This document shows positions 4,929-27,133 of a stretch of DNA of 27,133 nt, in pieces; position 1 is the stretch's first letter, and each line of letters begins with the position of its first letter. A model generated the notes under the pieces. That model ran no database searches. It was not told the origin of the DNA and worked only from the letters and a program-made list of their open reading frames with translations. Source of the stretch: a virus (Duplodnaviria > Caudoviricetes). The DNA lies in the IMG/VR virus record IMGVR_UViG_3300042339_000486, positions 1-27,133 of that record; one strand, 5' to 3'. The translations under genes and the position numbers were made by a program.

Positions 4929-4931
4929 CCG

Positions 4932-5111
4932 CTACTCCTTTGGAAACTTGTCTTTAACGGCTTTGATAAGCGCACTCATATCCGCAGAAAACACGCCCGC
5001 ATGATACAAATCATCCAACTGATCCCCAATAGGCGGATACGCAACCGCGCGTTCTGCTTGGTACGAACCATGATCAAATGTTTCTTGATTCTCAATTGGA
5101 AAGTTAGTCAT
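4932..5111 (-). CDS. Short tail fibre chaperone paralogue (59 aa; absent from the ORF track)
   Basis: Hand translation MTNFPIENQETFDHGSYQAERAVAYPPIGDQLDDLYHAGVFSADMSALIKAVKDKFPKE, clearly similar to the C-terminal half of 3946-4260. Confidence 0.8.
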   Translation of the reverse strand: MTNFPIENQETFDHGSYQAERAVAYPPIGDQLDDLYHAGVFSADMSALIKAVKDKFPKE

Positions 5112-5119
5112 TATTTGTC

Positions 5120-5830
5120 CTAAATCTTAATGATGTAGTTAGTGACAAGAAATGGTTGTGCCGCAGTACCACTGTTAGCGGTATTGCTGCCGTCAGTAGT
5201 GTTTGTGCTTGGGCCGCCAGTGCTGCCACCAACGCTCAGCCCACCACTAAGCGTTCCCGCATTTCCGCCAATTGTCTGCACACCACCGTAAACAGTAGTT
5301 CCCCAAGCCCCGCCGCCAATAACATTTGCGTAGTAAATATTACCACCAGCAACCCAACGGGCAAACTGGCTACCTTCGCCATGCGTATGGTTACCCATAT
5401 TGTGCGTATGCGTAATTGTGTGTGAATGGTTTGGATTACGCGAAGCGTCGGCAAGGAGATCACTCTTATTTAAGGCGTCTACCGCGACGTTCGCGCCCTT
5501 ACCGACTGGTGCGCGACCCTTTAGATCAGGAATCTTGAACGAGGATGCGCTTGTTCCTCCATACGTCGTAGTGATAGCGGAGTAGAGCGCCGCGTATTGC
5601 GTATTGGCTACGCTGTTTAGTGTTTGCCCATCACAGATAAGCCACCCACTGGGAGCGGTTGACCCTGCGAAGGACTGTATCGACCCGATTGGCGTGACGC
5701 CTTCCCATGCAGTGCCATTCCACCAGCGGTGACTAAACGTGTCTGTTTCGTAGATAATCTGTCCGACGATAGGGCTTGCGGGTCGTGTGGTGCTGGTTAC
5801 TACTTGATGTCCACTACCAAAAATAGTCAT
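5120..5830 (-). CDS. Tail fibre protein with phage tail-collar domain
   Basis: PIGSIQSFAGSTAPSGWLICDGQ...FKIPDLKGR collar motif, HxH motifs, and a C-terminal QPFLVTNYIIK. Confidence 0.85.
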   Translation of the reverse strand: MTIFGSGHQVVTSTTRPASPIVGQIIYETDTFSHRWWNGTAWEGVTPIGSIQSFAGSTAPSGWLICDGQTLNSVANTQYAALYSAITTTYGGTSASSFKIPDLKGRAPVGKGANVAVDALNKSDLLADASRNPNHSHTITHTHNMGNHTHGEGSQFARWVAGGNIYYANVIGGGAWGTTVYGGVQTIGGNAGTLSGGLSVGGSTGGPSTNTTDGSNTANSGTAAQPFLVTNYIIKI

Positions 5831-5838
5831 ACCATCCC

Positions 5839-9329: not shown

Positions 9330-10045
9330 TAGTAACTATCTACGGAAGAGTAGTACGCGCTTCGATCATGCTGAGGCATACCAGTAGAACGAGCGTAACC
9401 GCTTGGCATCATGCGAGTTCCACGGCCCTGACGACCATTTACCCACTTGGTAAACATAGAGTACATAATTTCGTAACGGTTCTGAAGAGCCTGAGAAAGA
9501 GTGACATCCTCGCCAACGGCGTCAGAAAGACGAGCCGCTGCCGCAACGCTAATCATGTGCTGCCACTGGCTAGGAACAGACGAAGGAGAAGATTCCTCAA
9601 CAAGCGGATCGACCACTGTGTCTACAAGAAGAAGCGGGTTCTGCGCGTAGTAAATAATTAGCGAGTCGCCGGTCTGCTGTGAAGCGGGCCACACATACAG
9701 ATTGTCTAGCCCCTGCAAAGCGTACTTGCGGATATACCCGGTCGGGTTTGTAGACGACAATTGGAGAACGGATTCAAGGTCAGACGGCTCAAGGATATAA
9801 CCGTCTGTTTGACCAGCAGCACGATAAATAATGTACTGAATCATTCCAAGATTAGTAATGCCGAACCCCGAAAGGGTGTAAAGATTCTGTCCTTGCGTAA
9901 GCGACTCAACACTATTTGTGCAAAGCAACTGGGCCTGCACAACAAGATCACGGTATGCGTCGTTGACAAAAATGCCCGCAAGCGTGTCGTCTTCAGTGAG
10001 CGCCATGTTCTGAGCGCGAGTCTTCAGATCAGCAAACGTAGCCAT
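9329..10045 (-). CDS. Head-tail adaptor (tubular protein A-like)
   Basis: MATFADLK...FVNDAYRDL...LYVWP...YY...VPSQWQHMI pattern and synteny. Confidence 0.7.
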   Translation of the reverse strand: MATFADLKTRAQNMALTEDDTLAGIFVNDAYRDLVVQAQLLCTNSVESLTQGQNLYTLSGFGITNLGMIQYIIYRAAGQTDGYILEPSDLESVLQLSSTNPTGYIRKYALQGLDNLYVWPASQQTGDSLIIYYAQNPLLLVDTVVDPLVEESSPSSVPSQWQHMISVAAAARLSDAVGEDVTLSQALQNRYEIMYSMFTKWVNGRQGRGTRMMPSGYARSTGMPQHDRSAYYSSVDSY

Positions 10046-10395
10046 TAGTACGCACCATCCTCTGGCTCAAACTCGTCCTTGCCGCGATGCGTAGCATTCG
10101 TCATCTCCATAGAAACCTCGGACTGACAAACAGGACAACGGCCCTTAGTGACGAGAGCCATCAACTCTTCGGCGCTACGAATACCAGCATAGTGGTGCGC
10201 ATGATCGCGCCACACCTTCGCATTACGCGCCTCTGGGGCGGCCGGGAATGGCTCAAGGCAAGAGCCGCAAACCATTCCCAGCCGAATCTGGTCAAAGCCA
10301 TCCTGACTGATATACCACTTAAGCGTGGACTCGTCCGCACCGTGAACAACGTCGGCAGTTTCTTCAGCGTGGGCAGTGACCGGGACTCCAAACAT
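10045..10395 (-). CDS. Hypothetical protein with putative zinc ribbon (CGSC...CPVC)
   Basis: 116 aa, TAATG-coupled on both sides, two CxxC pairs. Confidence 0.65.
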   Translation of the reverse strand: MFGVPVTAHAEETADVVHGADESTLKWYISQDGFDQIRLGMVCGSCLEPFPAAPEARNAKVWRDHAHHYAGIRSAEELMALVTKGRCPVCQSEVSMEMTNATHRGKDEFEPEDGAY

Positions 10396-11087
10396 TAGAC
10401 GACTTCTACCTCAAGCGCCTCTGCCTCTTCAGCATTAGCAGCAATGGTATTTCCGATTGCGGTAAGGGCCGAGATAACGGCGGGGCGGTCAGCGTGAGCC
10501 TTCTCGTAGGCGATCACTGCAGCCACGTCGTAACCATCCTCAACGCACTTTTCAGCGATGGCGTCGGCAACAGTTGCGCCCTTCTTAGCGCGAATCTTGT
10601 TGTAGTTCGGCCACGGAGGAGCAACTTCGATTGCGTCAACCTTGACGTACCAGACGCCATTGTCGGCATTCTCCAAGAGCGTAGATTCGGCTTCCTTACG
10701 ATCATCAAGGTCGTCGATCCACTCAGTGTCGAACAGGCTGAAGTTAAAGTCGGGTCGCGATGCGTTGCTTACACCAGAAATGCGACCAACGCCGTCCTGA
10801 ATTACAATGCCGCGCTGATAAGGGACAGCGCCAAAGATGTCGGCGGCAGACGTACCGCTTGCATTGACGCGCTCGGGATCTGTGCGCGAGGTTGCCTGAC
10901 CAGACCAATGCAGCAGGGCCGCGTAGTTCTCGTCGGGGTAAGCCATGCCATGCTTAAACTCAACGATAAGCGCAGGCTTCTTAATATTGCGTGGGATCAT
11001 CGTGCCGTTGGCGGTTTCAAAAACCTCGTACTCGGTCTCGCCTCGGACGATGAACGTGTAGTTAGCGGAGCGGCTAACAAATCGCAT
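10395..11087 (-). CDS. Hypothetical protein downstream of the major capsid gene
   Basis: 230 aa with purine-rich RBS. C-terminal PPWPNY..I...YEK.H.DRPAVI helical domain. Confidence 0.7.
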   Translation of the reverse strand: MRFVSRSANYTFIVRGETEYEVFETANGTMIPRNIKKPALIVEFKHGMAYPDENYAALLHWSGQATSRTDPERVNASGTSAADIFGAVPYQRGIVIQDGVGRISGVSNASRPDFNFSLFDTEWIDDLDDRKEAESTLLENADNGVWYVKVDAIEVAPPWPNYNKIRAKKGATVADAIAEKCVEDGYDVAAVIAYEKAHADRPAVISALTAIGNTIAANAEEAEALEVEVV

Positions 11088-11110
11088 GTGAGTGTTCTCT
11101 CTTTCTGTAA

Positions 11111-11160
11111 GACAAAGGAGCCTCTGGTACTACAATTAGATTGTAGCGCCAGAGGCTCCT
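11111..11160 (-). terminator. Stem-loop after the capsid gene (probable intrinsic terminator or attenuator)
   Basis: 12-bp inverted repeat AGGAGCCTCTGG/CCAGAGGCTCCT (11116-11160) with an inner CTACAA/TTGTAG stem and a short U tract on the minus strand. It is preceded by a CCACC-UUCG-GGUGG hairpin (11167-11180). Confidence 0.65.
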
Positions 11161-11186
11161 GATGACCACCCGAAGGTGGCGACTAA

Positions 11187-12350
11187 CTATGCGTAACCGG
11201 TCACGCCGCGAAGGATCGCGTGATTCTGCTCAACGCCGACCTGCAGCGAGAACTCGGTCAGGTACTCCTGAATCGTCGAATCCCGGTCGGGAGCCTGACG
11301 GTTCGGGAGCAGCACCGTCTTGCGCAGCGGGCGCATGACGACGTCGTCCATGTCAACCAGCACGGCCCACGAGCCGATCTGATTGCTTGCCGTGGAGAAG
11401 TCAAGCCAATCACGCTTCTCAACGATCTTGACGGTACCACCATTGGCACCACGATACTCCATCAGCGACACACCGTACGACTTCACGTCGGACGACGGGA
11501 GCGCCAACTTGCCCTGCGGGAACGAGGACAGAGCCGACACGACCAGCGGCGAGGCGAAGAGCACCTTGTTCCGCGAACCGTAACGGAAACCCGTGCGGAG
11601 GAACGTAGCAAAACCGCTCTCCGAGAGGTTGCCACCAACGGTGGTGATGTTGGACGAGATGAAGTCGGCAAGGCCGCCACAGAAACCCGTGGGGGACGCG
11701 CCAGTAGCAAGGTCGCGCTGACCGAAGAACAGCGTGTTCTCAATCTGGCGACGATGCTCCATCATCTTCTTCTTGGCCTCGTACTGCGGCTCGTTGCCAC
11801 CATACAGATCCGACTGGATCAGCGTGTTGGTAAAGCCGAGCGGGTCGCGCTGGATCTGGCAGTAGTTGTAGTTAGCAACCTGCTGCGTCATGCGGATGTC
11901 GCCAAGCGTTGCGCCCTCAGACGAAGCGTTACCAATCTTGATAACGTCCGTTGCGGTCGAAACAGCCGAAGCGGCAACCGAACCAATGCTACGAGTGACC
12001 GTGAGGACATCCGTAGCGATGCTGGTGACCTTGACGTTCTCGCCGTTTGCAAGGCGGAGAATGTCGTTGGGACGGAAATACGCACCCGTGCCAGTAGCAA
12101 CGGTGATGGTCGTGTCGCCAATCAGAACAGCGGCGGCCAGCGTCGTCAGACGCGGAACCAACTGATCCGAAAGCCACTCAACCTTCTGGGACTTCGCGGG
12201 ACGCGAAGACACCTGCGAAAGCATGACAGTAAACGGAGCGTCGTCCGGCTCCAACTGCTTGATAACAGGATCCATGTCAACGACACGGCGGGCCTGCAAA
12301 AGGGTGGATACATCGTCACTGACGACTCCACTAACAACGGTAACAGGCAT
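11187..12350 (-). CDS. Major capsid protein (resembles SU10/DUF5309-type HK97 fold)
   Basis: 387 aa with AGGAGG RBS. KVEWLSD, NYCQIQR, IENTLFFG and EFSLQV..EQNHA motifs. Follows the scaffold gene. Confidence 0.9.
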   Translation of the reverse strand: MPVTVVSGVVSDDVSTLLQARRVVDMDPVIKQLEPDDAPFTVMLSQVSSRPAKSQKVEWLSDQLVPRLTTLAAAVLIGDTTITVATGTGAYFRPNDILRLANGENVKVTSIATDVLTVTRSIGSVAASAVSTATDVIKIGNASSEGATLGDIRMTQQVANYNYCQIQRDPLGFTNTLIQSDLYGGNEPQYEAKKKMMEHRRQIENTLFFGQRDLATGASPTGFCGGLADFISSNITTVGGNLSESGFATFLRTGFRYGSRNKVLFASPLVVSALSSFPQGKLALPSSDVKSYGVSLMEYRGANGGTVKIVEKRDWLDFSTASNQIGSWAVLVDMDDVVMRPLRKTVLLPNRQAPDRDSTIQEYLTEFSLQVGVEQNHAILRGVTGYA

Positions 12351-12431
12351 AGCCCGAACCTCCTACTTTGGTTTTCATTTTGAATCTGGTCGAAAACCCT
12401 AGTGGGGTGTCGCTCTGGTCAGGCGGCCCGC

Positions 12432-13271
12432 TTAGGCGTTGAGAATCATGTTCCGAATCAAGTCGTCTGCCTCATCACTACCAAGGTCTGCGGGGTTTGT
12501 CGTATTCCGCGTACTGACCATTGGAGCCTGAGCGATTTCTTGATCGGGGACAATCATCCCCTGATTACGCATGGCAGTCTGATATTCGTGCCACTTAATA
12601 ATCCCTACAATTGTACCAATTCCTTCGGCTAGCGCAACCGGGTCAGTCTCACTGCCCGGAGGAATGATGCCACTAACGTCACGCTCATCAATAAACTGTT
12701 CGACGCGCTCCTGATACTCGTCATAATCCGGCACGGCGTCAACGATCATTTCGTAAGCGTCCATCATCACGGCGCGCTCATGCTGCTCAAGCAGCGGCAT
12801 CGTCATGTCCGCCAACTGGTCGCGCTCAGTGTTCAGGCGCTGCTCCATGAAGTACTGGGTTGCCTCCCACGGCTTCTGCGTCCACCAATGCTCAAGCACC
12901 GCATTAGCAAGATCATCTGGAAGCCGATCACTATTGCTCAGCACCCACATTGCAGCGTTTGACGGATCCTGCTCAGCAAACGACACAACCTCGGCCTCAG
13001 TCGTAGGCTCCTGACCAAAGTACTGGGGAGCAGCGGGCTGCTCATACTCTGGCTCGGGGTCGGGCTGGCGCGACTCGTGAAACTTACGCTGCAACTCTAG
13101 GTAAGCATTCTCAAGATCATCAGCATTCTGGTACTTGCCAGCAAATACGCGAGAATCTTCCTCTTCGCTCTGCTCGGCAACCGGATGCTCCTCAACGGGC
13201 TGGTCGTCCAGAGGCTCTTCGTCTACCTGAGCCGCTCGGATCGTCTCCATCAGGATGTCATCGTCAGACAC
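12432..13271 (-). CDS. Capsid scaffolding protein
   Basis: Acidic 279-aa protein with FAGKYQNADDLENAYLELQRK motif, directly upstream of the capsid gene. Confidence 0.8.
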   Translation of the reverse strand: MSDDDILMETIRAAQVDEEPLDDQPVEEHPVAEQSEEEDSRVFAGKYQNADDLENAYLELQRKFHESRQPDPEPEYEQPAAPQYFGQEPTTEAEVVSFAEQDPSNAAMWVLSNSDRLPDDLANAVLEHWWTQKPWEATQYFMEQRLNTERDQLADMTMPLLEQHERAVMMDAYEMIVDAVPDYDEYQERVEQFIDERDVSGIIPPGSETDPVALAEGIGTIVGIIKWHEYQTAMRNQGMIVPDQEIAQAPMVSTRNTTNPADLGSDEADDLIRNMILNA

Positions 13272-13464
13272 TGTTTAGTCTCCTTGACTTTAGTTTGATG
13301 ACGAAATCAAGTCCTTTGACTTCGCCACTTAGTCGCAAGTAATCCTCGTAACTAAGATTATCGTACACCATCTGGCGCAAAAGCACATCTTTACGGCGCG
13401 TAAGTTCTTCTTCTACCGCAACCCAACTTGTCTGACTCAACAAGGAGTCAAGCAGATTGCTCAT
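13264..13464 (-). CDS. Small portal-adjacent protein
   Basis: 66 aa, ATGA overlap with the portal gene. YEDYLRLSGEVKGL motif is common in small podovirus head-module proteins. Confidence 0.7.
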   Translation of the reverse strand: MSNLLDSLLSQTSWVAVEEELTRRKDVLLRQMVYDNLSYEDYLRLSGEVKGLDFVIKLKSRRLNSV

Positions 13465-15200
13465 GCGGCCTCAGGGGGTGGCACGGCGGCACCGGCCTCA
13501 GCGTTAGCCTCGGGAGCAGCAGCAGGCATACCGCCCTGCCCTCCTCCAGCAGCCATTGCCTCGGGTGTCGGTGCCGCCGCCGCCCCTCCACCGCCGACCA
13601 GTTGCGGGGCGGGCATCGTGGGAGGCTCTTCCTTGAAGTACTTGGAAGGTTCCTCACTAAACGCTTCGGTGACATCCTCTACAACCTTCTTCAGGTCAAG
13701 AGTGATGCCAGCCTGCTGCATAAGCATATAGTTAGCAGTCAAAAAGTTAGCCTTGGCAAGGGCTTCGGCGCGCTTCTCCTGCCGAATAAGAGACTCTGCC
13801 GCGTCCTCCACGACATACTCATACTTACCCTGAAGCATCGCCGGATTAGCGGCCTTCCACTCAATAGCCGCAGCGCCACGATCAATACGGATAGCGACGT
13901 TGGGGGGAAGCAACTGCTGGTTCAAAGCAATCTGCTGCTCGCCGACGCGCTTGAGAGCAAATAGGATCTGCTGCTTCATGCGCATGATGCGCTTTGTTGC
14001 CATGTTCTGGATAATGCTAATACCGGTGGCGGTGCTCTGATCCATCTGCGAATTAGAAGCGCCGCTCAGGTAGGCGACAGCGCCACTGAGGTTCTGCAGG
14101 TCGCCCTTGAGCAACTCTTCTGCCTGAACGGTAGGCCCAATGATGCTGGTGGCGGGCTGCCACGCTTGAATCTGATCGGGACGAGCGCGAAGAATGCCGC
14201 CCGGCATAAGGCGAAAGTCCTGCTGCTCGGCGGACGGATCAACAAACACGGCAGCGTTTGACATGAAACGAGTGTTGTCAATGCGATGGTTCTGCATCTC
14301 CCACAACGCTGCCTGAATATCAGCAATCATTTCGACAACGCTATGCCCGGCGAGTTCAAACAGGCTAGGCATTGGCGAGGCGGTAACAAATGGGAACTCG
14401 CCATGCCAGAACGGGCTGCACTCGTGACGCAGGATCGTGCCACGATTAGCGATAGTGGTGAGGTAAATCTCGTCACCCTCACGGTGCCACCACTCAATAA
14501 CTTCAACGCGGCCCTTGCGCTTGTTAGCGTTAGTTCCTTCAAACTCGCTAGACGCGCCATCACTAATCTCGTCAACGTTTTCGTAGACGCCACTAGCCTT
14601 GAGTGACTTCTTGTTTTCGTACGTCACATGGAAAACTTCGGAAGCATCGTCAATAGAATGCGCCGTCGGATCCCACAAGAACTGCTTAGCATCGATGACA
14701 ACAAAGCCGGGCTGCTGGCGATACGGTACGCGAGTCTCCGTGACCTTGCCAATCATCTGCGAACCAAACGGCGAGGGCTGAAAATCTCGCTGCTTTACCT
14801 TGCGCCACTCTTCGCGCCAAGTAATCTTGCCTACCGTAAAGCCACGGATAAGTGCCTGCAGAACAAATGGCACCAACTTTTCGTGATAACGATCAGCCTC
14901 GCGCTGCTGGTTGAGCAGGTGCTCGTGCAGGTTGGCGGACTCGTCATTTGCGGGCTGGGCGGAGAGAACTTTGGCGCGCTGATTCTCATCAATCATGTTG
15001 CTGGCGAGCAACTCAATGATCTGCATGACGTATGGCGGGTGCAGATCACTCTGCCAATCATCGTCGCGCGGCTTTAGGACAGCGTTATAGGCGTCGTCGC
15101 ACTTCTCGTACTTGTTTACGCGAGCGGTGTGTGGTGCTTTTGCAGAGTCGAAACACTTGTTGAATCGCGCAAGCAATTCTCGCTCGTCGTAAGGCTCCAT
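13461..15200 (-). CDS. Portal protein (P22/SU10-like; start revised to MEPYDER)
   Basis: PFWHGEFPFV, GHSVVEMIADIQ and STATGISII motifs, size about 580 aa, and synteny. The track start at 15254 overlaps the upstream gene. Confidence 0.9.
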   Translation of the reverse strand: MEPYDERELLARFNKCFDSAKAPHTARVNKYEKCDDAYNAVLKPRDDDWQSDLHPPYVMQIIELLASNMIDENQRAKVLSAQPANDESANLHEHLLNQQREADRYHEKLVPFVLQALIRGFTVGKITWREEWRKVKQRDFQPSPFGSQMIGKVTETRVPYRQQPGFVVIDAKQFLWDPTAHSIDDASEVFHVTYENKKSLKASGVYENVDEISDGASSEFEGTNANKRKGRVEVIEWWHREGDEIYLTTIANRGTILRHECSPFWHGEFPFVTASPMPSLFELAGHSVVEMIADIQAALWEMQNHRIDNTRFMSNAAVFVDPSAEQQDFRLMPGGILRARPDQIQAWQPATSIIGPTVQAEELLKGDLQNLSGAVAYLSGASNSQMDQSTATGISIIQNMATKRIMRMKQQILFALKRVGEQQIALNQQLLPPNVAIRIDRGAAAIEWKAANPAMLQGKYEYVVEDAAESLIRQEKRAEALAKANFLTANYMLMQQAGITLDLKKVVEDVTEAFSEEPSKYFKEEPPTMPAPQLVGGGGAAAAPTPEAMAAGGGQGGMPAAAPEANAEAGAAVPPPEAA

Positions 15201-19050: not shown

Positions 19051-19373
19051 TATGCTGCCTCGTCGGCCAGATCTCTGCGATCACTGCGAAGCGCGTACTG
19101 CTTTCCCTTAGGGGCGCGCATATGCTGGAACGCTGTAGACACTTGATCACAGTGAATCGTCTGGATCTCTCCAGTGAGGGGAATGATCCACTTGATGTCG
19201 CCGCATCCACGATTGTTTCTGCGTGGCTGCTTATAGTCAAACAAGTCTTTGAAGAATGATGGTGGGTTTCCATCCTTTTTCTTCCCCCTGCGAATGCTTT
19301 GAGCATCATTGAACTGGCGAAGTTCATCTTCGTACTTGGTGTAGGTGCGCATCATGCGCTTGTTGCTGCTCAT
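19050..19373 (-). CDS. Hypothetical protein, first gene of the late arm (start revised to MSSNKR)
   Basis: ATG at 19373 is preceded by TGcTATTGT-N6. TAATG-coupled to terS. Confidence 0.6.
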   Translation of the reverse strand: MSSNKRMMRTYTKYEDELRQFNDAQSIRRGKKKDGNPPSFFKDLFDYKQPRRNNRGCGDIKWIIPLTGEIQTIHCDQVSTAFQHMRAPKGKQYALRSDRRDLADEAA

Positions 19374-19901
19374 AAAGCGACAATAGCACAACAGCAGTAG
19401 TCACGAACATACGATTTATCGTGCATATGTACGATATTTACACACCAACACCACCCACAGTGTAGAAAACCTACACACCGAGTCGTGATACTCTAAACAT
19501 AACGCCGAATCCCCCGCTTAGGAGAAACGGCACACAGTAACCGCAAGCCTCGTCGAAGCACTGACGCAGAAACCGCACCACGGACTGCCATCAGACGACC
19601 AGACAATGTCCCGGCAACGGCTAGGCCGGATCGTGCAGGGACGTCAAGCACGTAAAACGGAAGACGGTTAGCCACAAGGCTAGGAGGGCCAAAGAAGAAC
19701 TGGCACAACCATCATCCTGAGAAGAAGCCTACACAAAAATCGTACCCACAAAAAAGAAAGCCCGAGGATGGGTACGACGTCGGGCGGCGCGGGTGGGGTT
19801 CTCGCTCGGGCGGGCGGGCGGCGTAGATAGCGCGGGCGCGCACGGCGCGGGGTAGGGGCCAACGCGCGCGAAGGACGCACACACCATCGGCGGGTTGTAG
19901 T

Positions 19902-19974
19902 TGTAAGGATTATGTAAAGGTTTGGTTTGGTGGTGATTCGTCTGCTATGATGGGTGAACACCGAATGGAAGGGG
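19902..19974 (+). promoter_or_regulatory. Early promoter P1 (tandem box inverted)
   Basis: TGTAAG-N5-TGTAAA (19902-19918), TGcTATGAT (-10 at 19946-19951), GGGTGAACACC, and RBS GGAAGGGG (19967-19974). Confidence 0.65.
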
Positions 19975-19980
19975 TGCAGT

Positions 19981-20211
19981 ATGAACGCTGCGAAGCGGCA
20001 GGACTTGAGCACGGCGTGGAAGTTGGGGGTACAGCGTGGGGCGGCTGGCCCGCACGTTTGCGGGGATAAGTGGCTGGCCCTGATCGATGGCAAGTGTGAG
20101 CGCGACGTGCGGGATATCGTCGCGGCGCTATTGTTCGGGATGCATGGCGATTCGTTCGGCGCGTTTATGGCGCAGCGGTTCCCGGTTCGCGCGAAGGGGG
20201 TGACGGCATGA
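19981..20211 (+). CDS. Early hypothetical protein (76 aa)
   Basis: ATG 6 nt after GGAAGGGG; ATGA coupling to the next gene. Confidence 0.7.
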   Translation: MNAAKRQDLSTAWKLGVQRGAAGPHVCGDKWLALIDGKCERDVRDIVAALLFGMHGDSFGAFMAQRFPVRAKGVTA

Positions 20212-20501
20212 TCGCCCCCACGGGGGTGCCCGCATTTGGTGGCGGAGTGCTGCTACGCGGCGCGGGTGGCCGGTTCGTGGGCGTTCAGCGTGACGGGGTG
20301 CCGGTGCCTACGGGTTCCGGGTTCCGCGTGATCGATGGCCGCGTGTTCGTGGTCACGGTTTTGCCGGATGCGCGGGTGCCCGCGTGGGCCTGCAAGTCGC
20401 GGCCGATTGGGCGGACTCAGCACGGCAAGCGTGGCGGGTATCGTGAGGGATCCCGGGAAAAGTGGGCGCAGCGCGCGGCGCGGATGGCGGCGGCGTCGTG
20501 A
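20208..20501 (+). CDS. Early hypothetical protein (97 aa)
   Basis: GAAGGGGG RBS; overlapping start/stop at both ends. Confidence 0.65.
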   Translation: MIAPTGVPAFGGGVLLRGAGGRFVGVQRDGVPVPTGSGFRVIDGRVFVVTVLPDARVPAWACKSRPIGRTQHGKRGGYREGSREKWAQRAARMAAAS

Positions 20502-20617
20502 GTCCGGCGGAAAAGCGGCTAGCGCGTCTGATTGCGCGGATGAAGGCCGGGGAGGTGCTGACGCCCGAGGAGCGGGAGCAGGCGCGGGAAGCCTGCCGGG
20601 TGCTACGTATCGGGTAG
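20498..20617 (+). CDS. Small early protein (39 aa; absent from the ORF track)
   Basis: GTGA overlap; MSPAEKRLARLIARMKAGEVLTPEEREQAREACRVLRIG. Confidence 0.6.
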   Translation: MSPAEKRLARLIARMKAGEVLTPEEREQAREACRVLRIG

Positions 20618-20622
20618 GCGCG

Positions 20623-20667
20623 TGGGGGGTGGCTGGCCCTGCCGGGTTCGAATCCCGGCACCCCCCA
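20623..20667 (+). ncRNA. Minimal tRNA-like element (acceptor-like stem plus T arm, no anticodon arm)
   Basis: TGGGGGGTG/CACCCCCCA stem enclosing a 10-nt linker and a canonical T arm CCGGG-TTCGAAT-CCCGG. Confidence 0.6.
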
Positions 20668-20752
20668 TTGGATAGGCTAGGCGGTTCGGAGTGCGCCCGG
20701 AGGGCAGGAGGAAGGGGAAGGTACGCGCGCGCTCGGGCGTGGGGGCTTGTCG

Positions 20753-20822
20753 AATCCTTACGGAATCTTTACAAACTTCGCCGCCGGGGTGCGTTATAGT
20801 GTGGGTACACCAACGGAAGGGG
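20753..20822 (+). promoter_or_regulatory. Early promoter cassette P2
   Basis: AATCCTTAC-GG-AATCTTTACA, 21 nt, TATAGT, GTGGGTACACC, and RBS GGAAGGGG. Confidence 0.8.
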
Positions 20823-20827
20823 TGGCA

Positions 20828-21058
20828 ATGATGATCACGAAGGAATACCGCGAAGCGGCGTTCGCGCTGAACCGGGCGCTGGATGCGATGGATGCGGCCA
20901 ATGATGCCATGGCGCGATTGGGCTACACCGAGGAGGTGCTCGGGGAGGTGATGAGCCTTCACGCGTGGGGCACCATCCATAGCCTGTATCAGGACTACGG
21001 CAACGCGGCCGCGAAGTGGCGGCGGGAGACCAAGTCGGCGGGGCTACTCAGCCCGTAA
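20828..21058 (+). CDS. Early hypothetical protein (76 aa; start revised)
   Basis: ATG follows the RBS of P2. The track N-terminal extension runs through the promoter. Confidence 0.75.
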   Translation: MMITKEYREAAFALNRALDAMDAANDAMARLGYTEEVLGEVMSLHAWGTIHSLYQDYGNAAAKWRRETKSAGLLSP

Positions 21059-21123
21059 TCCTTACGGAATCCTTACAAGTACGGCCACGGGTTCGTGGCA
21101 TAATGGAATCAGTCCGAAGGGGG
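21057..21123 (+). promoter_or_regulatory. Early promoter cassette P3
   Basis: AATCCTTAC-GG-AATCCTTACA, 21 nt, TGgCATAAT, and RBS GAAGGGGG. Confidence 0.8.
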
Positions 21124-21128
21124 ACAAA

Positions 21129-21944
21129 ATGACCTATAGCAACCGCGTACTACGCGCCGTCACCGCAACGGTGGCCGCCATCGATGAGCACTACCCGGTC
21201 AAGTCGGAGGGTAGCCTGCTCACCACCACCAACCCGAAAGTGGCGAAGGGTGCCGCCGATATGGGCTACTTGCCCGCCGTCCTGCACCTAGCGCCCGCCA
21301 CCATGTCGGGTGCCAACGTATGCCCATGGGCTAGCGTCGAATGTACCGCCGTCTGCCTGAACACTTCGGGCCGGGGAGGTATTGGCCTTGACGCTAGCGG
21401 GTGGAACGTGATTCAGGCTAGCCGGATTCGTCGCACCGCCCGGATGATCCTTGACCCGGAAGGGTTTAGCGCCCGCATCTGTCGCGAGATCACGAATCAT
21501 GCCCGCAACGCGCGACGGCATGGCCTCACGCCCGCGCTGCGCCTGAACGGCACGTCCGATATCGCTTGGCATCGCACGTTCCCCGAGGTGGTAGCCCACG
21601 CTATCGCGGAGGGCTGCATCCTGTACGACTACACGAAGCGGCCGAAGCCTGACGCTGCCGAGCACGGCATCGACGTGACGTATTCCTACCCGGGCGGGCA
21701 GGGAGAGGCGGCGCGCCGTTATCTGGAAGCCGGGCACCGCGTAGCAGTAGTCTTCGCCACCCGCAAGGGGGCACCGCTGCCCGCAACGTGGACGGCACCG
21801 TGGGGAGGCACGTATCCCGTCATCGACGGGGACGCGCACGACCTCCGATTCGCTGACGCGGGCGGCGTGATCGTCGGGCTACGCGCGAAGGGGAATGCGC
21901 GCGGCATGCAGGGGACGCGGCACGGATTCCTGCAGGCTCCGTGA
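21129..21944 (+). CDS. GP88-family protein (putative Fe-S / radical-SAM-like fold)
   Basis: LHLAPA..SGANVCPWASVECTAVCLNTSGRG, LRLNGTSDIAW, YDYTK and VIDGDAHDLRF.D....IVGLRAKG motifs. Confidence 0.8.
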   Translation: MTYSNRVLRAVTATVAAIDEHYPVKSEGSLLTTTNPKVAKGAADMGYLPAVLHLAPATMSGANVCPWASVECTAVCLNTSGRGGIGLDASGWNVIQASRIRRTARMILDPEGFSARICREITNHARNARRHGLTPALRLNGTSDIAWHRTFPEVVAHAIAEGCILYDYTKRPKPDAAEHGIDVTYSYPGGQGEAARRYLEAGHRVAVVFATRKGAPLPATWTAPWGGTYPVIDGDAHDLRFADAGGVIVGLRAKGNARGMQGTRHGFLQAP

Positions 21945-21996
21945 TCCTTACAAAATCCGAACACACTACGCACCAGACAAGGGGTACGATAAAACT
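21943..21996 (+). promoter_or_regulatory. Early promoter cassette P4 (leaderless)
   Basis: GATCCTTAC-AA-AATCCGAACA, 21 nt, TACGAT, N6, ATG. Confidence 0.7.
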
Positions 21997-22224
21997 ATGG
22001 ACAAGACAGAGAAGCGCGCCGATATCATCGCCGATACACTGACCATCGCAGAGATCGGGCACGTCGCCGAAGGGCTACGGTACTGGCTGAACCTGCCCGG
22101 ATCCGAATTGTCGCCGCACTTCAGCGACGTGTACGCTACGCGTCGGCTCATGCTGGACGCACTATCGTCGGCCGAGCGTAACGAATACGCGGGCGACTAC
22201 GACTACCCGGAGGGGGCAGCATGA
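21997..22224 (+). CDS. Early hypothetical protein (75 aa; start revised to MDKTEK)
   Basis: Start follows P4; ATGA coupling downstream. Confidence 0.7.
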   Translation: MDKTEKRADIIADTLTIAEIGHVAEGLRYWLNLPGSELSPHFSDVYATRRLMLDALSSAERNEYAGDYDYPEGAA

Positions 22225-22430
22225 AATACGATCCTACACACGACTTCACCCCGCTACGGCGCTACTGCCGACGCAACGGGGCAGGGGAGGCACTCCCGTG
22301 GGAGTACATGGGGCACGACGACAATGGGAACGCGCACTACCGAGAGCGGGAGAACGGGAACCGGCTCTGCCTGAACCCGAACGGACGGCTCGGGTGCATC
22401 CACCGCATCCGAACCGTCGACCTGAGATAG
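22221..22430 (+). CDS. Early hypothetical protein (69 aa)
   Basis: GGAGGGG RBS and ATGA overlap. Confidence 0.7.
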   Translation: MKYDPTHDFTPLRRYCRRNGAGEALPWEYMGHDDNGNAHYRERENGNRLCLNPNGRLGCIHRIRTVDLR

Positions 22431-22431
22431 A

Positions 22432-22503
22432 AATCCTTACAAACTTTTTACAAACTCAGCCACAATCATGTGGCATAGTATGGGTACACCACCAGAAGGG
22501 GAC
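22432..22503 (+). promoter_or_regulatory. Early promoter cassette P5
   Basis: AATCCTTAC-AA-ACTTTTTACA, 21 nt, TGgCATAGT, ATGGGTACACC, and RBS GAAGGGGAC. Confidence 0.8.
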
Positions 22504-22506
22504 ACC

Positions 22507-22956
22507 ATGAACACCATCGACACCGACACCGCAGACACCGACGTGCTCCGCGCCCAGATCCGCGAGATCAGCGCAGAGAACGACGACCGCCTCACCATCA
22601 TCGAAGAACTTCGCCGGGCCAACCTCAAGACAATCGGAGACATGAACGTAGCCGTCGCCCTGCTCCGTGAGATGGCAACCATCGCCGAGGAAGGCATGCG
22701 CCGGGCCTGCGAGAACGACGAGAGATTCGCCAACCTCGTCATCAATTACGACATCATGGACCTGACCTCCGAGTATGAGATCCGTATCACGGTGCCCGTC
22801 ACCATGACGATCATCATCAGCGGCGACAGCGAGGACGACGCGCTGGAGGGCGTCGGCGAGCACCTGTCCAACGAGGTCACCGTCGACGTCCACGGAGTAG
22901 AGGACTACGACTTCGACTCGTACGACTTCGACATCCAGAACGTCTGCAAGGCGTAG
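22507..22956 (+). CDS. Acidic early hypothetical protein (149 aa; start revised to MNTIDT)
   Basis: ATG follows the RBS. N-terminal coiled coil and a very D/E-rich C-terminal domain. Confidence 0.75.
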   Translation: MNTIDTDTADTDVLRAQIREISAENDDRLTIIEELRRANLKTIGDMNVAVALLREMATIAEEGMRRACENDERFANLVINYDIMDLTSEYEIRITVPVTMTIIISGDSEDDALEGVGEHLSNEVTVDVHGVEDYDFDSYDFDIQNVCKA

Positions 22957-22965
22957 CACTACCCA

Positions 22966-23026
22966 TCCGGCATCCCGCACTGATGAGCGCCGGACGAAAC
23001 ACCCGCCACGACGGGGGTGTCTGCGG
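22966..23026 (+). ncRNA. Type I hammerhead ribozyme with loop II pseudoknot
   Basis: Stem I CCGCA/TGCGG; core CTGATGA (22980-22986); G-C closed loop II; GAAA (22996-22999); stem III ACACCC/GGGTGT; cleavage triplet GTC (23019-23021). Loop II GCCGGA pairs with upstream TCCGGC. Confidence 0.88.
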
Positions 23027-23059
23027 ACAGGCTAGCCAGTACTGGCGAACCTCTCCCAA

Positions 23060-23164
23060 GGGAACCACGACCCGCTAACAACGGGGCTAAATGGAAAATC
23101 GGGTTTGTTAGGCCCGAGTAATCCCCCCGCATCCACCAATGCGATGCGGCTGGGCGCGGTTCCC
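23060..23164. ncRNA. Unclassified multi-stem pseudoknotted RNA candidate
   Basis: Closing stem GGGAACC/GGTTCCC, internal stems, and a 7-nt loop TTGTTAG complementary to CTAACAA. Strand is ambiguous. Confidence 0.5.
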
Positions 23165-23172
23165 CGGTAAGA

Positions 23173-23232
23173 ACTCCTTACCAAATCATAACAACAGCCA
23201 TACTCTAACCTGTGGTACGGTATGGGTACACC
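23173..23232 (+). promoter_or_regulatory. Early promoter cassette P6
   Basis: ACTCCTTAC-CA-AATCATAACA, 22 nt, TGgTACGGT, ATGGGTACACC. Confidence 0.75.
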
Positions 23233-23252
23233 CCAAGAACGGAGAAGGAAAC

Positions 23253-24257
23253 ATGATCGAACACGCAACCGGTGGCATCCTTGAGAACGACGGAGCCTTC
23301 TACGGTGGACGCCAGCCCGCATGGCACCGCCTCGGCACCGTCATCGACGAGGACGTGGTCACCAGCGCCGAGGCCATCCGCCTCGCCGGACTGGACTGGA
23401 CGGTGGAGCAGCACGACATCCACGTCCACGTCCCCAACGGCGACGACATGCCCGACACGACCACGCTCATCCCCGACAAGGTCGCGAACGTCCGCATGGA
23501 CACGAACGGCACGCTCGGCATCGTCACCCCCCGCTACAAGATCGTCCAGAACGTCGACGCGTTCGACTTCTTCGACGAGATCATCGGCAAGGGTGACGCG
23601 CACTACCACACCGCAGGTAGCCTGTTCAACGGGCGCAAGGTCTGGGCGCTCGCTCGCCTGAACCGGGACATCCTGATCGGTGGCGACGAGTCGGAGCGCA
23701 TCGACCCCTTCGTCGCCCTCTGCAACGGGCACGACGGGAACACGTCGCTCAGCGTCTACACCACGCCGGTCCGTGTGGTCTGCCAGAACACGCTGCAGTG
23801 GAGCATGCAGGGAACTAAGAACATGTGGAAGGGCAGGCACACGCCGAACGTGACCGACAAGGTGCGGGACGCGCGTGACATGCTCGGCTTCAGCAACGAG
23901 TACTTCGACCAGTTGCAAACGCTGGGCGACAGCCTCATCCGGCAGCCCATCAACCGCATCTCGTTCGACCGGATGCTGGAGATGCTCGTCCCGCTCCCCG
24001 CCCCGAAGGACGAGGAGAGCACACGCGGACTGACCATCGCGCAGAACACGCGCGAGGCAATCCACGCAGCATGGGACGTGGACAACCTCGCGAACGTCAA
24101 GAACACCAAGTGGGGCTTCGTGCAGGCCGTCGCCGAGTACGTCGACTGGAGCAAGACTCACCGCTCCGACGACAGGTTCATCGACCAGAACCTGCTCGGC
24201 GCAAACCAGAACGTCACGCTCAAGGATCGCAGCGTGGCCGTGGCGCTCGCCGCCTAA
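23253..24257 (+). CDS. DUF932-family (TIGR03299-like phage/plasmid) protein (334 aa; start revised)
   Basis: PAWHRLG, AGLDWTV, YKIVQNVDAFDFFD, TAGSLFNGRKVW, NGHDG, TPVRVVCQNTL and TKWGFVQAVAEYVD motifs. AGAAGGA RBS. Confidence 0.9.
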   Translation: MIEHATGGILENDGAFYGGRQPAWHRLGTVIDEDVVTSAEAIRLAGLDWTVEQHDIHVHVPNGDDMPDTTTLIPDKVANVRMDTNGTLGIVTPRYKIVQNVDAFDFFDEIIGKGDAHYHTAGSLFNGRKVWALARLNRDILIGGDESERIDPFVALCNGHDGNTSLSVYTTPVRVVCQNTLQWSMQGTKNMWKGRHTPNVTDKVRDARDMLGFSNEYFDQLQTLGDSLIRQPINRISFDRMLEMLVPLPAPKDEESTRGLTIAQNTREAIHAAWDVDNLANVKNTKWGFVQAVAEYVDWSKTHRSDDRFIDQNLLGANQNVTLKDRSVAVALAA

Positions 24258-24264
24258 CCGAATC

Positions 24265-24303
24265 CACCCCCGCCCGACCTATCCATCGCTCCGGGCGGGG
24301 GTG
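24265..24303 (+). terminator. GC-rich hairpin after the DUF932 gene (terminator-like or stabiliser)
   Basis: Perfect 12-bp stem CACCCCCGCCCG/CGGGCGGGGGTG. There is no U tract. Confidence 0.5.
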
Positions 24304-24331
24304 AGATCCACCATCAAACGAAAGGAACAAG

Positions 24332-24541
24332 ATGCCGAAGAACATCCTGTGGTACAGCATGGCTGACCATTCGCACGGCGCATGCGCAGCCCACGACATG
24401 CTGATCGTCGACGCCGACGACCTCACCCCAGAGGAGGGGCGCGCACTATACGAGGCGTCACAAGACGACACCGAGATCCTTCCCGACATCATGCTCGGGA
24501 TCTACTACCGACAGAACCCGGAGGCCGACCCATGTGGATGA
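24332..24541 (+). CDS. Hypothetical protein (69 aa)
   Basis: GAAAGGAA RBS; codon usage consistent with neighbours. Confidence 0.7.
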   Translation: MPKNILWYSMADHSHGACAAHDMLIVDADDLTPEEGRALYEASQDDTEILPDIMLGIYYRQNPEADPCG

Positions 24542-24885
24542 TGACTAAACTAGGATTCTTCTCAACCGTAGAAGACCGAGACAATAAGGGCGGCGTGATT
24601 GTCAGGGCGCGCTGCGAACAGGACATCGTTAACATTAGTTACTTCATGCAGATGAAGGACGCGTGGTGGCTAGACACCCTCGCCGACTACGGATACCGCC
24701 TGCGCTGCAGCAAGCCAGCGTGGGCAGCAGCAGTCGCACGAATGGCAGACGACATCGACTACGACAACTTCAAGTCTTCTATCACTGACGAGCGACACCA
24801 CAGTGCGTATCAGCGAGTGTGGATCGACATGCTCTACATTGACGACCGCGTTATCGATGACACAACGTGGGGTGATATGCTCTAG
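24532..24885 (+). CDS. Conserved phage hypothetical protein (117 aa; start revised to MWMMTK)
   Basis: GGAGG RBS; MW....GFFS.V...VRAR...DY.YR...IDYDNFK pattern. Confidence 0.75.
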   Translation: MWMMTKLGFFSTVEDRDNKGGVIVRARCEQDIVNISYFMQMKDAWWLDTLADYGYRLRCSKPAWAAAVARMADDIDYDNFKSSITDERHHSAYQRVWIDMLYIDDRVIDDTTWGDML

Positions 24886-24887
24886 CC

Positions 24888-25043
24888 ATGGAAAAGAAAC
24901 CAGAAACAAAAAGAAAAGTACGCTATATCGACTTCGACGGTGGGCGAGACTACCGGGCTTGGCTGACTGAGAACTTCCCCAGCAAGAGCGACCCGCCCCC
25001 CACCCCGAAGGCCGCAGAGGACACACCCGACACCAAGCCGTGA
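24888..25043 (+). CDS. Small hypothetical protein (51 aa; absent from the ORF track)
   Basis: MEKKPETKRKVRYIDFDGGRDYRAWLTENFPSKSDPPPTPKAAEDTPDTKP, starting 2 nt after the previous stop. Confidence 0.6.
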   Translation: MEKKPETKRKVRYIDFDGGRDYRAWLTENFPSKSDPPPTPKAAEDTPDTKP

Positions 25044-25061
25044 GCCTGCTACCATAGGCTC

Positions 25062-25172
25062 CGCAGGTAGGGTGTGCCTGTACAACTTGACGGCGGCGCG
25101 CCTTGCCCGTCGCTGAGGGACAAGTCCCTCCCCCCTTTGGTTGCGTCCCCTTCCCCGCAGCCAGAGGGGGTG
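25062..25172 (+). ncRNA. Putative sRNA (about 110 nt) with an anti-Shine-Dalgarno loop
   Basis: Own promoter candidate CCGACA-N17-TACCAT with TGn (25027-25055). Four consecutive hairpins; the last is 15 bp with two G-U pairs and loop TCCCCTTCCC. Confidence 0.55.
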
Positions 25173-25174
25173 TC

Positions 25175-25222
25175 AAGATTTACAAAACCCAAACACACCC
25201 AGTAATGAAGTAGCGGTACGCT
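25175..25222 (+). promoter_or_regulatory. Early promoter cassette P7 (degenerate)
   Basis: AAGATTTAC-AA-AACCCAAACA, 21 nt, TACGCT. Same spacing as P2-P5. Confidence 0.6.
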
Positions 25223-25259
25223 ACGACCAGAAGGCACACACCCATTCAGGAGGTAAGAG

Positions 25260-25667
25260 ATGACCATGCACATCCGCGAGCAGGACGACTACGACCTGAC
25301 TCCTAACCCCGACGACATGACGTACACCGAGGCGCAGATCGCAGAGCGCATGACCACGTTCGTCGGAGAGATCGACACGATCAACAAAGTGGCCAAGGCC
25401 ATGACGAGGGACGCCATCTCCCGGTTCGGCCTCGTCACCATCGAAAGAGATATCCACGTCAACATCCTCGTCATTGACCCCGAGGAGACGATCAACTGGA
25501 TCGACCAGCCGGGGCAGCACATCGACCTGCGCCGCATTGCTGAGCATGTTCACGGTGACGCGACCGTGGTCCCCAGCCCGACGGGCAAGAACCACCTGTA
25601 CATCATGCCCATGGGCGGCTCCATCAGCGGCTCCACCTTCTGCATCACCGGGAGGGAAGATGCCTGA
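25260..25667 (+). CDS. Hypothetical protein (135 aa)
   Basis: Strong AGGAGGT RBS; consistent codon usage. Confidence 0.75.
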   Translation: MTMHIREQDDYDLTPNPDDMTYTEAQIAERMTTFVGEIDTINKVAKAMTRDAISRFGLVTIERDIHVNILVIDPEETINWIDQPGQHIDLRRIAEHVHGDATVVPSPTGKNHLYIMPMGGSISGSTFCITGREDA

Positions 25668-26067
25668 CGAGCAGATGACAATCGAAGACGTCCTTCGCCA
25701 GCACGGCGTTCCACTCGTGCACACGCCTAACGGAATCAACGCAGCAATCGCCGCTCGCGACGAAGCCATCGACCGAGTAGAGAAGAACACCAACCCCGAC
25801 TGGGCAGAGGCAGCGTATCTCGCATGCTGCCTAGTCGCAGAGGAGCAGCCGCTCTTTACGACAGACAACGTGTGGCAGAAAATGTCTTACCTCTACCCAC
25901 AGTTTCAAACGCATGAGCCGCGAGCAATCGGCGCAGTCATGCGACGGGTGGCGCGCGAGGACAAGATCTGCGGCACCGACGACTACGTCAAGTCGAACCG
26001 ACCAGAGTGCCACCACCGCCCGCAGATGATATGGAAGAGCCTGATCCATGAACTCCCAGAGTACTAA
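25660..26067 (+). CDS. Conserved phage hypothetical protein, possible winged helix (135 aa; start revised to MPDEQM)
   Basis: GGAGGG RBS; FTTDNVW...HEPRAIGAVM...S.RPECHHRP..IWKS pattern. Confidence 0.7.
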   Translation: MPDEQMTIEDVLRQHGVPLVHTPNGINAAIAARDEAIDRVEKNTNPDWAEAAYLACCLVAEEQPLFTTDNVWQKMSYLYPQFQTHEPRAIGAVMRRVAREDKICGTDDYVKSNRPECHHRPQMIWKSLIHELPEY

Positions 26068-26485
26068 GACATACATCAGCGGGACAATGAGAAAGCCCAA
26101 GGTCAAGAACAAGGGAGGCAAGCCGCAGATATACAAACACTTCGCGGCGGAAGACAAGTTGTACTACCGTGATGAAGGTAAGTTCCACTGCGCCTGCGAC
26201 GACAAGCAGGCCAGTGGCTACGTCGTCAAAGACCATTGTGGAGCAGAGAAGTTTCTCCCCAAAGACTTCACAGACCTAATCAGTTACGAAGAAGCCAGAC
26301 GCATGTGTGATAAGCACAGCGTCCACCTACCCAAACCCGGACACCCGAACCACGGGCACCGAGTACCACCACCCCTGCTCGTAGTGAGCACACCCCAAAA
26401 GAAGCGTCCCATGTGGAACCGGGACGCCATCAACAGGCACATCCAAGAGTGCCTAAGGAGAAGACACGATGCCGGAATACGTTGA
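26048..26485 (+). CDS. Hypothetical basic protein with Cys/His residues
   Basis: 145-aa ORF fills the gap between neighbours. The start is uncertain. Confidence 0.6.
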   Translation: MNSQSTKTYISGTMRKPKVKNKGGKPQIYKHFAAEDKLYYRDEGKFHCACDDKQASGYVVKDHCGAEKFLPKDFTDLISYEEARRMCDKHSVHLPKPGHPNHGHRVPPPLLVVSTPQKKRPMWNRDAINRHIQECLRRRHDAGIR

Positions 26486-27133
26486 CGCAGCAGACCTGCC
26501 CGACGCAGAGCGGATCAAGGCGCTGCGGGAACTGCATGCAGACCTGCGCACCCCACACCCCAGTCTCGTTGAGACCAAGCCCAAGGGCGGAACTAATCTT
26601 TCATACGTCGGCCACGCCGCCGTCACCGAGATGCTCCTCCGCCACGACCCGCTCTGGCACTGGTCGCCCCTAGGCTACGACGAGAACGGCAGCCCCGTCC
26701 TTGACCGCAACGCCGAGGGCCGACCGACTGGCATGTGGATCAGGCTCAACATCTTCGACCACGCCCGCATCGGGTACGGCGGAGTGGAGCCGAACGAGCG
26801 CCGCTCCGACGGCGACCTCATCAAGGAGATCATCGGCGACGGCATCCGCAACGCAGCCATGCGGTTCGGCATCGCGCTGAACCTCTGGAGCAAGAGCGAC
26901 CTAGAGTCCGCAGCCCCCGAGCCGTCCCCGCAGGATCACGTCCTGACTCAGGCCAAGGGCTGGAGCAAGGCAAAGCGAGATAAGATCAAGCAGGTTCTCA
27001 GCATCCGTGGGATCATCGACGAGAACGCCACCACGTTCGAACTGTTCGCAGAGCAGGTAGGTAACCACCCCGAGGTAGCGCGCGACATCGAAGCGTGGGT
27101 CAAGGCTCAGGCAGCGCCCATCCCCGAGGGCAC
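26469..27133 (+). CDS. Rad52/Rad22-like (Sak-type) single-strand annealing protein, truncated at the right edge (absent from the ORF track)
   Basis: Hand translation: ...KPKGGTNLSYVGHAAVTEMLLRHDPLWHW...GMWIRL.....RIGYG...IKEIIGDGIRNAAMRFGIALNLWSK. GGAG RBS. Confidence 0.85.
   Translation, partial: MPEYVDAADLPDAERIKALRELHADLRTPHPSLVETKPKGGTNLSYVGHAAVTEMLLRHDPLWHWSPLGYDENGSPVLDRNAEGRPTGMWIRLNIFDHARIGYGGVEPNERRSDGDLIKEIIGDGIRNAAMRFGIALNLWSKSDLESAAPEPSPQDHVLTQAKGWSKAKRDKIKQVLSIRGIIDENATTFELFAEQVGNHPEVARDIEAWVKAQAAPIPEG

Follow-up and report, generated by a model that had tools for sequence, protein, structure and literature searches.

Background

In phages P1 and P7, the c4 RNA carries two types of loop, one acting on a ribosome-binding site (RBS) and the other giving specificity (PMC5320573, PMC12197685). 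The 6C RNA of high-GC Gram-positive bacteria pairs through C-rich loops with the G-rich RBSs of many mRNAs and does so chaperone-free (PMC6486639), and the cuckoo RNAs of Alphaproteobacteria consist of 2–4 adjacent hairpins, each with the loop CCUCCUCCC (PMC4615179). In phage T4, the endoribonuclease RegB ends the early period by attacking a Shine-Dalgarno motif common to early mRNAs; all late and most middle mRNAs escape it (PMC3014915). Cluster K mycobacteriophages possess start-associated sequences, a conserved tag of more than a Shine-Dalgarno sequence at the starts of non-structural genes, whose reader (RNA or protein) was left open; four of these genomes have one copy in the opposite orientation (PMC3203893).

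In the literature surveyed, phage antisense RNAs have as targets either a single operon of the phage (c4, sar, OOP, aQ) or genes of the host (PreS, VpdS). The literature search, which largely covered main texts open without subscription, returned no case of a phage whose early genes are repressed by its own RNA through an RBS motif that they have in common, and the available parts of bioRxiv 10.64898/2026.10.21.760802 and PMC5737381 hold no relevant passage on such an RNA. Here we describe a phage element that probably encodes a trans-acting RNA of about 115 nt, which would repress early translation by pairing of its loops with GAAGG-type RBSs.

The phage and its relatives

The window, the whole stretch of DNA analysed, is 27,133 nucleotides long (IMG/VR record IMGVR_UViG_3300042339_000486) and derives from a tailed phage. 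Its minus strand encodes terminase, an SU10-type portal, an SU10-type capsid and tail-collar proteins, and its plus strand carries small early genes, a GP88-family gene, a DUF932 gene and the gene for a single-strand annealing protein. For the remainder of the genome we used record G001, which was identical to the window over the 9.6 kb compared; it is 39.3 kb long, has direct terminal repeats and is 100% complete. A PHROGs scan found no integrase, repressor or antirepressor family among the 54 proteins of the window and G001; many of the 54 had no match, so a small repressor may still be among them. No cultured phage relative of the window was found by blastn, and relatives of the capsid shared less than 60% identity (23–30% among the matches listed). 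Neither the atlas search nor endolysin homologues named a host; a scan of GTDB with the Sak alignment gave no match, and one with the terminase alignment gave a single weak match of 42 residues.

Loci of relatives were collected through neighbouring proteins, independently of the RNA sequence, and 13 records were extracted. Class I comprised the window, G004, L035, L032, L054, L059 and G002 (64–83% identity to the window RNA), and class II comprised G003, G005, L033, L039, L058 and L028 (55–56% identity in the three compared). A pattern scan of IMG/VR returned 42 stretches, consisting of members of both known classes and matches without the fold. No new lineage came from a model search of 46 of 61 DUF932 loci, which matched known members only, and 9 short DUF932 loci gave no match. 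Genes were predicted with a simple caller of our own, in which starts were scored by a generic anti-Shine-Dalgarno sequence and not by the loops; plus-strand genes from the divergent region to the RNA were designated early. The GP88-family (21129–21944, +) and DUF932 (23253–24257, +) genes lie in the early block of most relatives.

Structure of the RNA element

The element occupies about 25063–25177 of the plus strand (about 115 bases) and consists of a 5′ hairpin, P2, and a four-way junction. Its parts were as follows.

25063–25081, plus strand: P2 hairpin, near-invariant GGGUG loop at 25070–25074; predicted second pairing site (ACACC/CACCCG in early leaders)
25086–25091, plus strand: 5′ strand of P0 (CUUGAC), the junction-closing stem, of which 4 of 6 pairs change on both sides
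25092–25114, plus strand: P3 hairpin; second anti-RBS loop in relatives, degenerate loop GCGCCUUGCCC in the window
25115–25130, plus strand: P4 hairpin, variable loop; structural
25131–25170, plus strand: P5, 15-bp stem with two G-U pairs; main anti-RBS loop UCCCCUUCCC at 25146–25155
25172–25177, plus strand: 3′ strand of P0 (GUCAAG); predicted 3′ end of the RNA just behind, no long U run

Over 25062–25180, the plus strand folded with a z of −5.5 (0 of 200 shuffles as good) and the minus strand with a z of −1.4 (20 of 200 as good). Folding recovered the four hairpins described in the initial annotation, including the last one with 15 pairs, two G-U pairs and the loop UCCCCUUCCC. The extent given there, 25027–25172, falls short at the 3′ boundary: the structure extends to 25177 because CUUGAC (25086–25091) pairs with GUCAAG (25172–25177), closing P3, P4 and P5 into the junction, and this stem had been overlooked. 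New relative to that first reading are the junction-closing stem, the second anti-RBS loop in most of class I and the GGGUG loop complementing ACACC/CACCCG.

Element length varied from 104 to 134 nt across records. The P5 loop UCCCCUUCCC is present in the window, G004, L035 and L032. The second anti-RBS loop, on P3, occurs in most class I relatives and has decayed in the window; the P3 loops in relatives are UCCCCUUCUC, ACCCUUCCC, ACCUUCCG and UUUCUUCCUUUC. The two loops are ACCUUCCG and (U)CCUUCCCAC in L059, and UUUCUUCCUUUC and (U)CCUUCCCUCCU in G002. Class II has three hairpins, the middle one bearing the C/U-rich loop (AUCCCUUCCC), and ends with a tetraloop hairpin followed by a U-rich run.

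No Rfam family was found for the element (window 19300–27133 at E up to 5; five relatives at the gathering score); a match to mir-8515 with an E of 3.8 was attributed to chance, and identity as a tRNA was rejected by a tRNA search. No intrinsic terminator was recognised at the element by a search for a short GC stem, a loop of 3–8 nt and a U run, U-less terminators lying beyond its scope.

Conservation and compensatory changes

The element was present in 13 of 13 records at the same syntenic place, between a stop codon and the next promoter, and a model search found it single-copy per whole genome. In class I (seven rows), both partners have changed in 16 of the 38 pairs, a count reached by 0 of 500 shuffles and compared with 2–5 in slid controls; the structure was derived from the same seven rows, and the co-variation count is therefore favoured. 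Pair changes on one side were to or from G-U on the plus strand. When the class I model was run against class II, weak matches (E 0.03–0.7) were obtained, all at the syntenic place, with no others in 663 kb. The loops are more conserved than the stems: a C/U-rich loop is kept across the records while the stems vary, so that the loop conservation looked for in relatives was present.

In 4 of 9 relatives the difference in length is not a multiple of three, and a coding role was rejected because such differences break the reading frame. A minus-strand RNA or minus-strand RBS was also rejected, given the G-U pattern and the lack of a start codon behind the minus-strand GAAGGGG. Judged from its sequence, the element is a real, conserved, non-coding RNA structure, as would be expected of a trans-acting base-pairing sRNA.

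The early RBS tag and its predicted targets

Complementarity of the loops to RBS regions of the phage is present by prediction. The five RBS sites singled out by the initial annotation were located as reported, each 5–8 nt upstream of an ATG; predicted binding energies are in kcal/mol with accessibility.

19967–19974, plus strand: predicted target RBS GGAAGGGG, gene start 19981; −10.5
20193–20199, plus strand: predicted target RBS GAAGGGG, gene start 20208; −7.7
20815–20822, plus strand: predicted target RBS GGAAGGGG, gene start 20828/20831; −10.5
21116–21122, plus strand: predicted target RBS GAAGGGG of the GP88-family gene, start 21129; −10.3
22495–22503, plus strand: predicted target RBS GAAGGGGAC, gene start 22507, 9 contiguous pairs; −12.1

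The region 19900–23300 contains 7 copies of GAAGGGG, compared with a shuffle mean of 0.45 (0 of 500 shuffles reached 7). Five precede starts, and two more on the plus strand (20711 and 21887) lie away from called starts. In G001, GAAGGGG was found upstream of 5 of 11 early genes and of none of the 40 others. When seven genomes were pooled, GAAGG(G/A) preceded 32 of 69 early and 6 of 222 other genes; near-duplicates L035 and L028 were omitted from this count, and, the genomes being related, these are not independent counts.

In 5 of 6 genomes, accessibility-corrected binding of each RNA to its own starts favoured early genes over others (p = 0.0016 in G001, 0.0004 in G004, 0.006 in G002, 0.0004 in G003 and 0.005 in L059), and G005 showed no early preference (p = 0.19), with energies that ignore loop geometry. 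The predicted duplex covers the Shine-Dalgarno sequence itself.

Silencing of the earliest genes as a class, as had been proposed, fits in part. Predicted matches concentrate on genes that come first after a promoter, leaving about half of the early genes without a predicted site; predicted binding is no better than −7 for 5 of 11 early genes in the window. The description of downstream and late genes as mostly using GGAG(G) or leaderless starts was likewise partly correct: GGAG is present at 6 of 31 late genes and at 5 of 9 middle genes; a further 15 late genes start beside an upstream stop, and the other 10 show neither feature.

Co-variation of loop and tag

The commonest early-RBS 7-mer is complemented in the genome's own loop in 5 of 7 genomes (G001, G004, L032, L059 and G002). 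The tag is GAAGGGG in G001; GAAGGGG and AGAAGGG in G004 and L032, AGAAGGG being complemented by the P3 loop; GGAAGGA in L059, if the loop is counted with the U of a weak closing pair; and GAAAGGA in G002. In G003, loop and tag match over 6 nt, not 7, and several leaders (GGAAGGAA) are better matched by the loops of L059 and G002 than by the loop of G003 itself. G005 fails at the 7-mer level, its early tag GGGAGGGA pairing with its own loop only via one G-U. The RBSs of the GP88-family and DUF932 genes shift along with the tag of the lineage.

When loop types were set against RBS types in a 4 × 4 matrix, the cognate pairing ranked 1 of 24 by longest match and by energy, which is the best rank attainable with four lineages, and the G002 loops beat or tied the cognate loop in the columns of two other lineages. 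With composition-shuffled loops, single genomes gave 41–329 of 2000 (171 of 2000 for the window), a modest signal. The loop/RBS co-variation anticipated by the initial annotation is thus found in relatives, with G003 a near match and G005 an exception, and the signal is consistent, not overwhelming.

The same pairing could serve another purpose, namely exclusion of the early genes of a related phage, or a carrier state, as with c4 RNA in P1/P7. Lineage-specific loop/tag pairs resemble P1/P7 heteroimmunity as described in the available excerpts (PMC12197685, PMC5320573), and the loops cross-react least between distant lineages; however, cross-lineage binding is still substantial, and the PHROGs scan of 54 proteins, many without a match, showed no integrase or repressor family. 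We regard such a purpose as unlikely.

All loops resemble an anti-Shine-Dalgarno sequence, and some host mRNAs would be paired. The RNA might then be a mimic aimed mainly at host mRNAs during take-over, with the early genes of the phage as bystanders. The resemblance extends to 6C and cuckoo loops, whose known or proposed targets are many bacterial RBSs, and the G002 loop forms 7 pairs with the common Shine-Dalgarno sequence. In 5 of 7 genomes, by contrast, the loops form only 4 Watson-Crick pairs with this common sequence as against 6–9 with their own tagged early leaders, and they track the phage tags; a mainly host-directed role is accordingly quite improbable.

The P2 loop as a second pairing site

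The P2 stem varies around its GGGUG loop. In class I, ACACC is found no more than 45 nt from 22 of 53 early and 15 of 163 other starts, in many cases just downstream of the −10. In class II, whose version of the loop is CGGGUG, the complementary motif CA(C/U)CCG stands ahead of 6 of 16 early and 1 of 59 other starts, and it does so for 4 of 53 early starts in class I; both motifs were picked after looking, and the class II leaders are repeats of one unit. Good P2 matches (ACACC/CACACCC) also occur before two middle genes, and ACACC may simply be a preferred transcription start. We note as a lead that the GGGUG loop may pair with ACACC/CACCCG in early leaders as a second site.

The repeated unit lies upstream of early genes in class II (G003, L040 about 4900–6100; L028; L058). 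It consists of a 12-bp hairpin with a GUCGAA/GUCAAA loop, a 5-bp hairpin with an ACCC/AUCC/AACC/AAUC loop, and UAAGGAAGG(G/A)AACACC followed by the start codon.

Pairing might also be real and non-repressive, serving to protect or remodel early leaders or to guide a nuclease, or the P2 loop and a C-rich loop might form an on/off pseudoknot within the RNA. The near-invariance of GGGUG is in line with this, as are a pairing between the P2 and P3 loops that seems feasible by eye in the window, L054 and L059, and the P2 matches before some middle genes. The predicted duplex, however, spans the Shine-Dalgarno sequence itself, and pairing within the RNA, judged by eye, is weak or interrupted in L008 and G002. 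Readings of this kind are very unlikely.

Promoter motifs around the element

The following features flank the RNA.

25027–25032, plus strand: candidate −35 CCGACA, inside an upstream 51-aa ORF; poorly conserved
25042–25061, plus strand: P1, short inverted repeat around the −10; candidate DNA site or hairpin of a read-through transcript
25047–25055, plus strand: candidate extended −10 TGC-TACCAT (TACCAT at 25050–25055), predicted promoter of the RNA
25179–25222, plus strand: next promoter, TTTACAAAA ... TACGCT, with the layout of early promoters

The sequence reads as the initial annotation had it: CCGACA, a 17-nt spacer containing TGC, and TACCAT as an extended −10. CCGACA or CAGACA at 17-nt spacing was present in 4 of 13 records, and a conserved −35 upstream of the RNA was rejected on this count. 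TGn-TAC(C/G)(A/C)T occurred 8–16 nt upstream of the P2 loop in 13 of 13 records, a pattern composed after viewing the sequences and hence a description of the records, not a test; L033 retains the extended −10 outside any called ORF. The suggestion of a promoter of a different type is unsupported, because the extended −10 is the only conserved part and the early promoters also have extended −10s. P1 is nearly invariant in class I, so it has no support from co-variation. A TTACA promoter motif follows 3′ of the element in 13 of 13 records, TTACA having doubled as the end marker for extraction. The early-type layout of the promoter at 25179–25222 suggests fresh transcription of the downstream genes.

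The early promoters (20758, 21062, 21948, 22437, 23178 and 25180, plus strand) share TTAC(A/C/G)(A/G)AA roughly 29 nt upstream of the −10, frequently in two copies. In several of them a short inverted repeat also lies immediately ahead of the −10, and both features are candidate sites for an activator or operator. The −10 of the RNA in most class II phages lies within the last codons of a 60-aa HTH_17-like gene (L040, 8118–8300, plus strand; E 1e-4, below the cut-off), a candidate regulator of the RNA.

The location, which in all records is behind a stop codon and ahead of the next promoter, the tetraloop hairpin and U-rich run of class II and the unconserved −35 would suit a structural 3′ end of the last early operon (a U-less terminator, exonuclease barrier or processing site), with loops that bind protein or are C-rich for structure and an incidental RBS match. 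This is improbable in view of loops that are more conserved than the stems, are duplicated in most of class I and track the early tag across lineages, the conserved extended −10 just upstream, in L033 even outside an ORF, and the lack of a terminator pattern. Conservation, compensatory changes, early-versus-late specificity and loop/RBS co-variation, the sequence tests proposed at the outset, all favour a plus-strand RNA with an RBS-complementary loop, and they make the fallback offered with them, a plain terminator, unlikely.

Other RNA structures and genes

A hammerhead ribozyme core (CUGAUGA, GAAA, GUC) lies at 22960–23026 of the window (plus strand; 29.4 bits against RAGATH-1-hammerhead, below the gathering score) and is conserved in seven records (window, G002, G004, G005, L059, L032 and L033). 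CCGGC upstream of the core complements the loop of stem II, likely forming a pseudoknot. The core is located before the DUF932 promoter and, in L033, directly behind the RNA element. At 20624–20668 (plus strand), a tRNA-like piece has a 7-bp G/C stem stacked on a T-arm with a GUUCGAAU loop in the centroid fold (z only −1.3); lying between early genes, it could be cut by RNase P. Behind DUF932, a strong 11-bp hairpin with a 15-nt loop and no U run spans 24266–24304 (plus strand), and a similar loop is kept in G004, L035 and L032.

The structural region of L044 includes a gene (8393–14998, plus strand) for a protein of 2201 aa, likely a host take-over factor, in which residues about 1290–1450 form an Alt-like ADP-ribosyltransferase domain. 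L059 has two tRNA genes at 1188–1341 (minus strand), between the terminase small-subunit region and the early region; no tRNA genes were found in the window.

Proposed mechanism

Because loop and tag change together in most lineages, the likely product of the element is a small RNA that would shut down the synthesis of early proteins collectively. The proposal draws on the constant syntenic place, the compensated stems, the complementary loops, the use of the tag by early genes only, and the joint variation of loop and tag. The RNA would be transcribed from the extended −10, or released as the 3′ end of the last early operon, and would accumulate from the distal end of the early region as early transcription proceeds. 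Its C/U-rich loops would then pair in trans, chaperone-free, with the GAAGG-type RBSs of early mRNAs and block ribosome loading, so that the first gene of most early transcription units would be turned down together; the GGGUG loop could add a supporting contact with ACACC/CACCCG in the same leaders. The outcome would be delayed negative feedback at the early-to-middle transition, from which middle and late genes would escape.

Comparison with known systems

With c4 (RF01695) the element shares a phage-encoded multi-stem RNA, a terminal closing helix, loop pairing, and loops and targets that differ between related phages, its action in trans being predicted here. It differs in having a four-way junction and a separate 5′ hairpin over 104–134 nt, whereas c4 has three stem-loops with a′ and b′ loops over about 77 nt and is processed from a precursor by RNase P, and in having 5–8 scattered early leaders as predicted targets, whereas c4 targets the ant mRNA. 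The c4 covariance model gave no match in window 19300–27133 (E up to 5) or five relatives (gathering score), and the c4 context of an antirepressor operon in a temperate phage was not seen among the 54 proteins, many small ones of which have no family.

The C-rich loops predicted to act on G-rich RBSs resemble those of 6C; 6C, however, is chromosomal with C-run loops and host targets, whereas this element is phage-encoded with CCC(C)UUC-type loops tracking phage tags. Membership of 6C was not indicated, with no Rfam match and loops lacking 6C-type C runs. As in the cuckoo RNAs, anti-Shine-Dalgarno loops are repeated on freely varying stems, but the loop motif CCUCCUCCC is absent, the hairpins are joined in a junction and the location is in a phage.

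The predicted job of the RNA, early shut-off through a common RBS motif, is that of RegB; RegB is a protein nuclease needing S1, whereas here an RNA would occlude the tag by pairing. More tentatively, with somewhat less than even confidence, this may be an RNA-only counterpart of T4 RegB: in an apparently non-integrating phage with a private early-RBS tag, one four-way-junction RNA with two kinds of loop would end early translation class-wide, tag and reader co-evolving. If true, RNA-based class-wide early shut-off would be a new way of timing a lytic programme, and the natural loop/tag variants would provide ready-made swaps and possible orthogonal translation switches. The start-associated sequences of cluster K phages differ in sequence and in phage, and no RNA was assigned to them in the excerpts available (PMC3203893); the mechanism, if true, would offer a testable answer for such conserved tags without a known reader.
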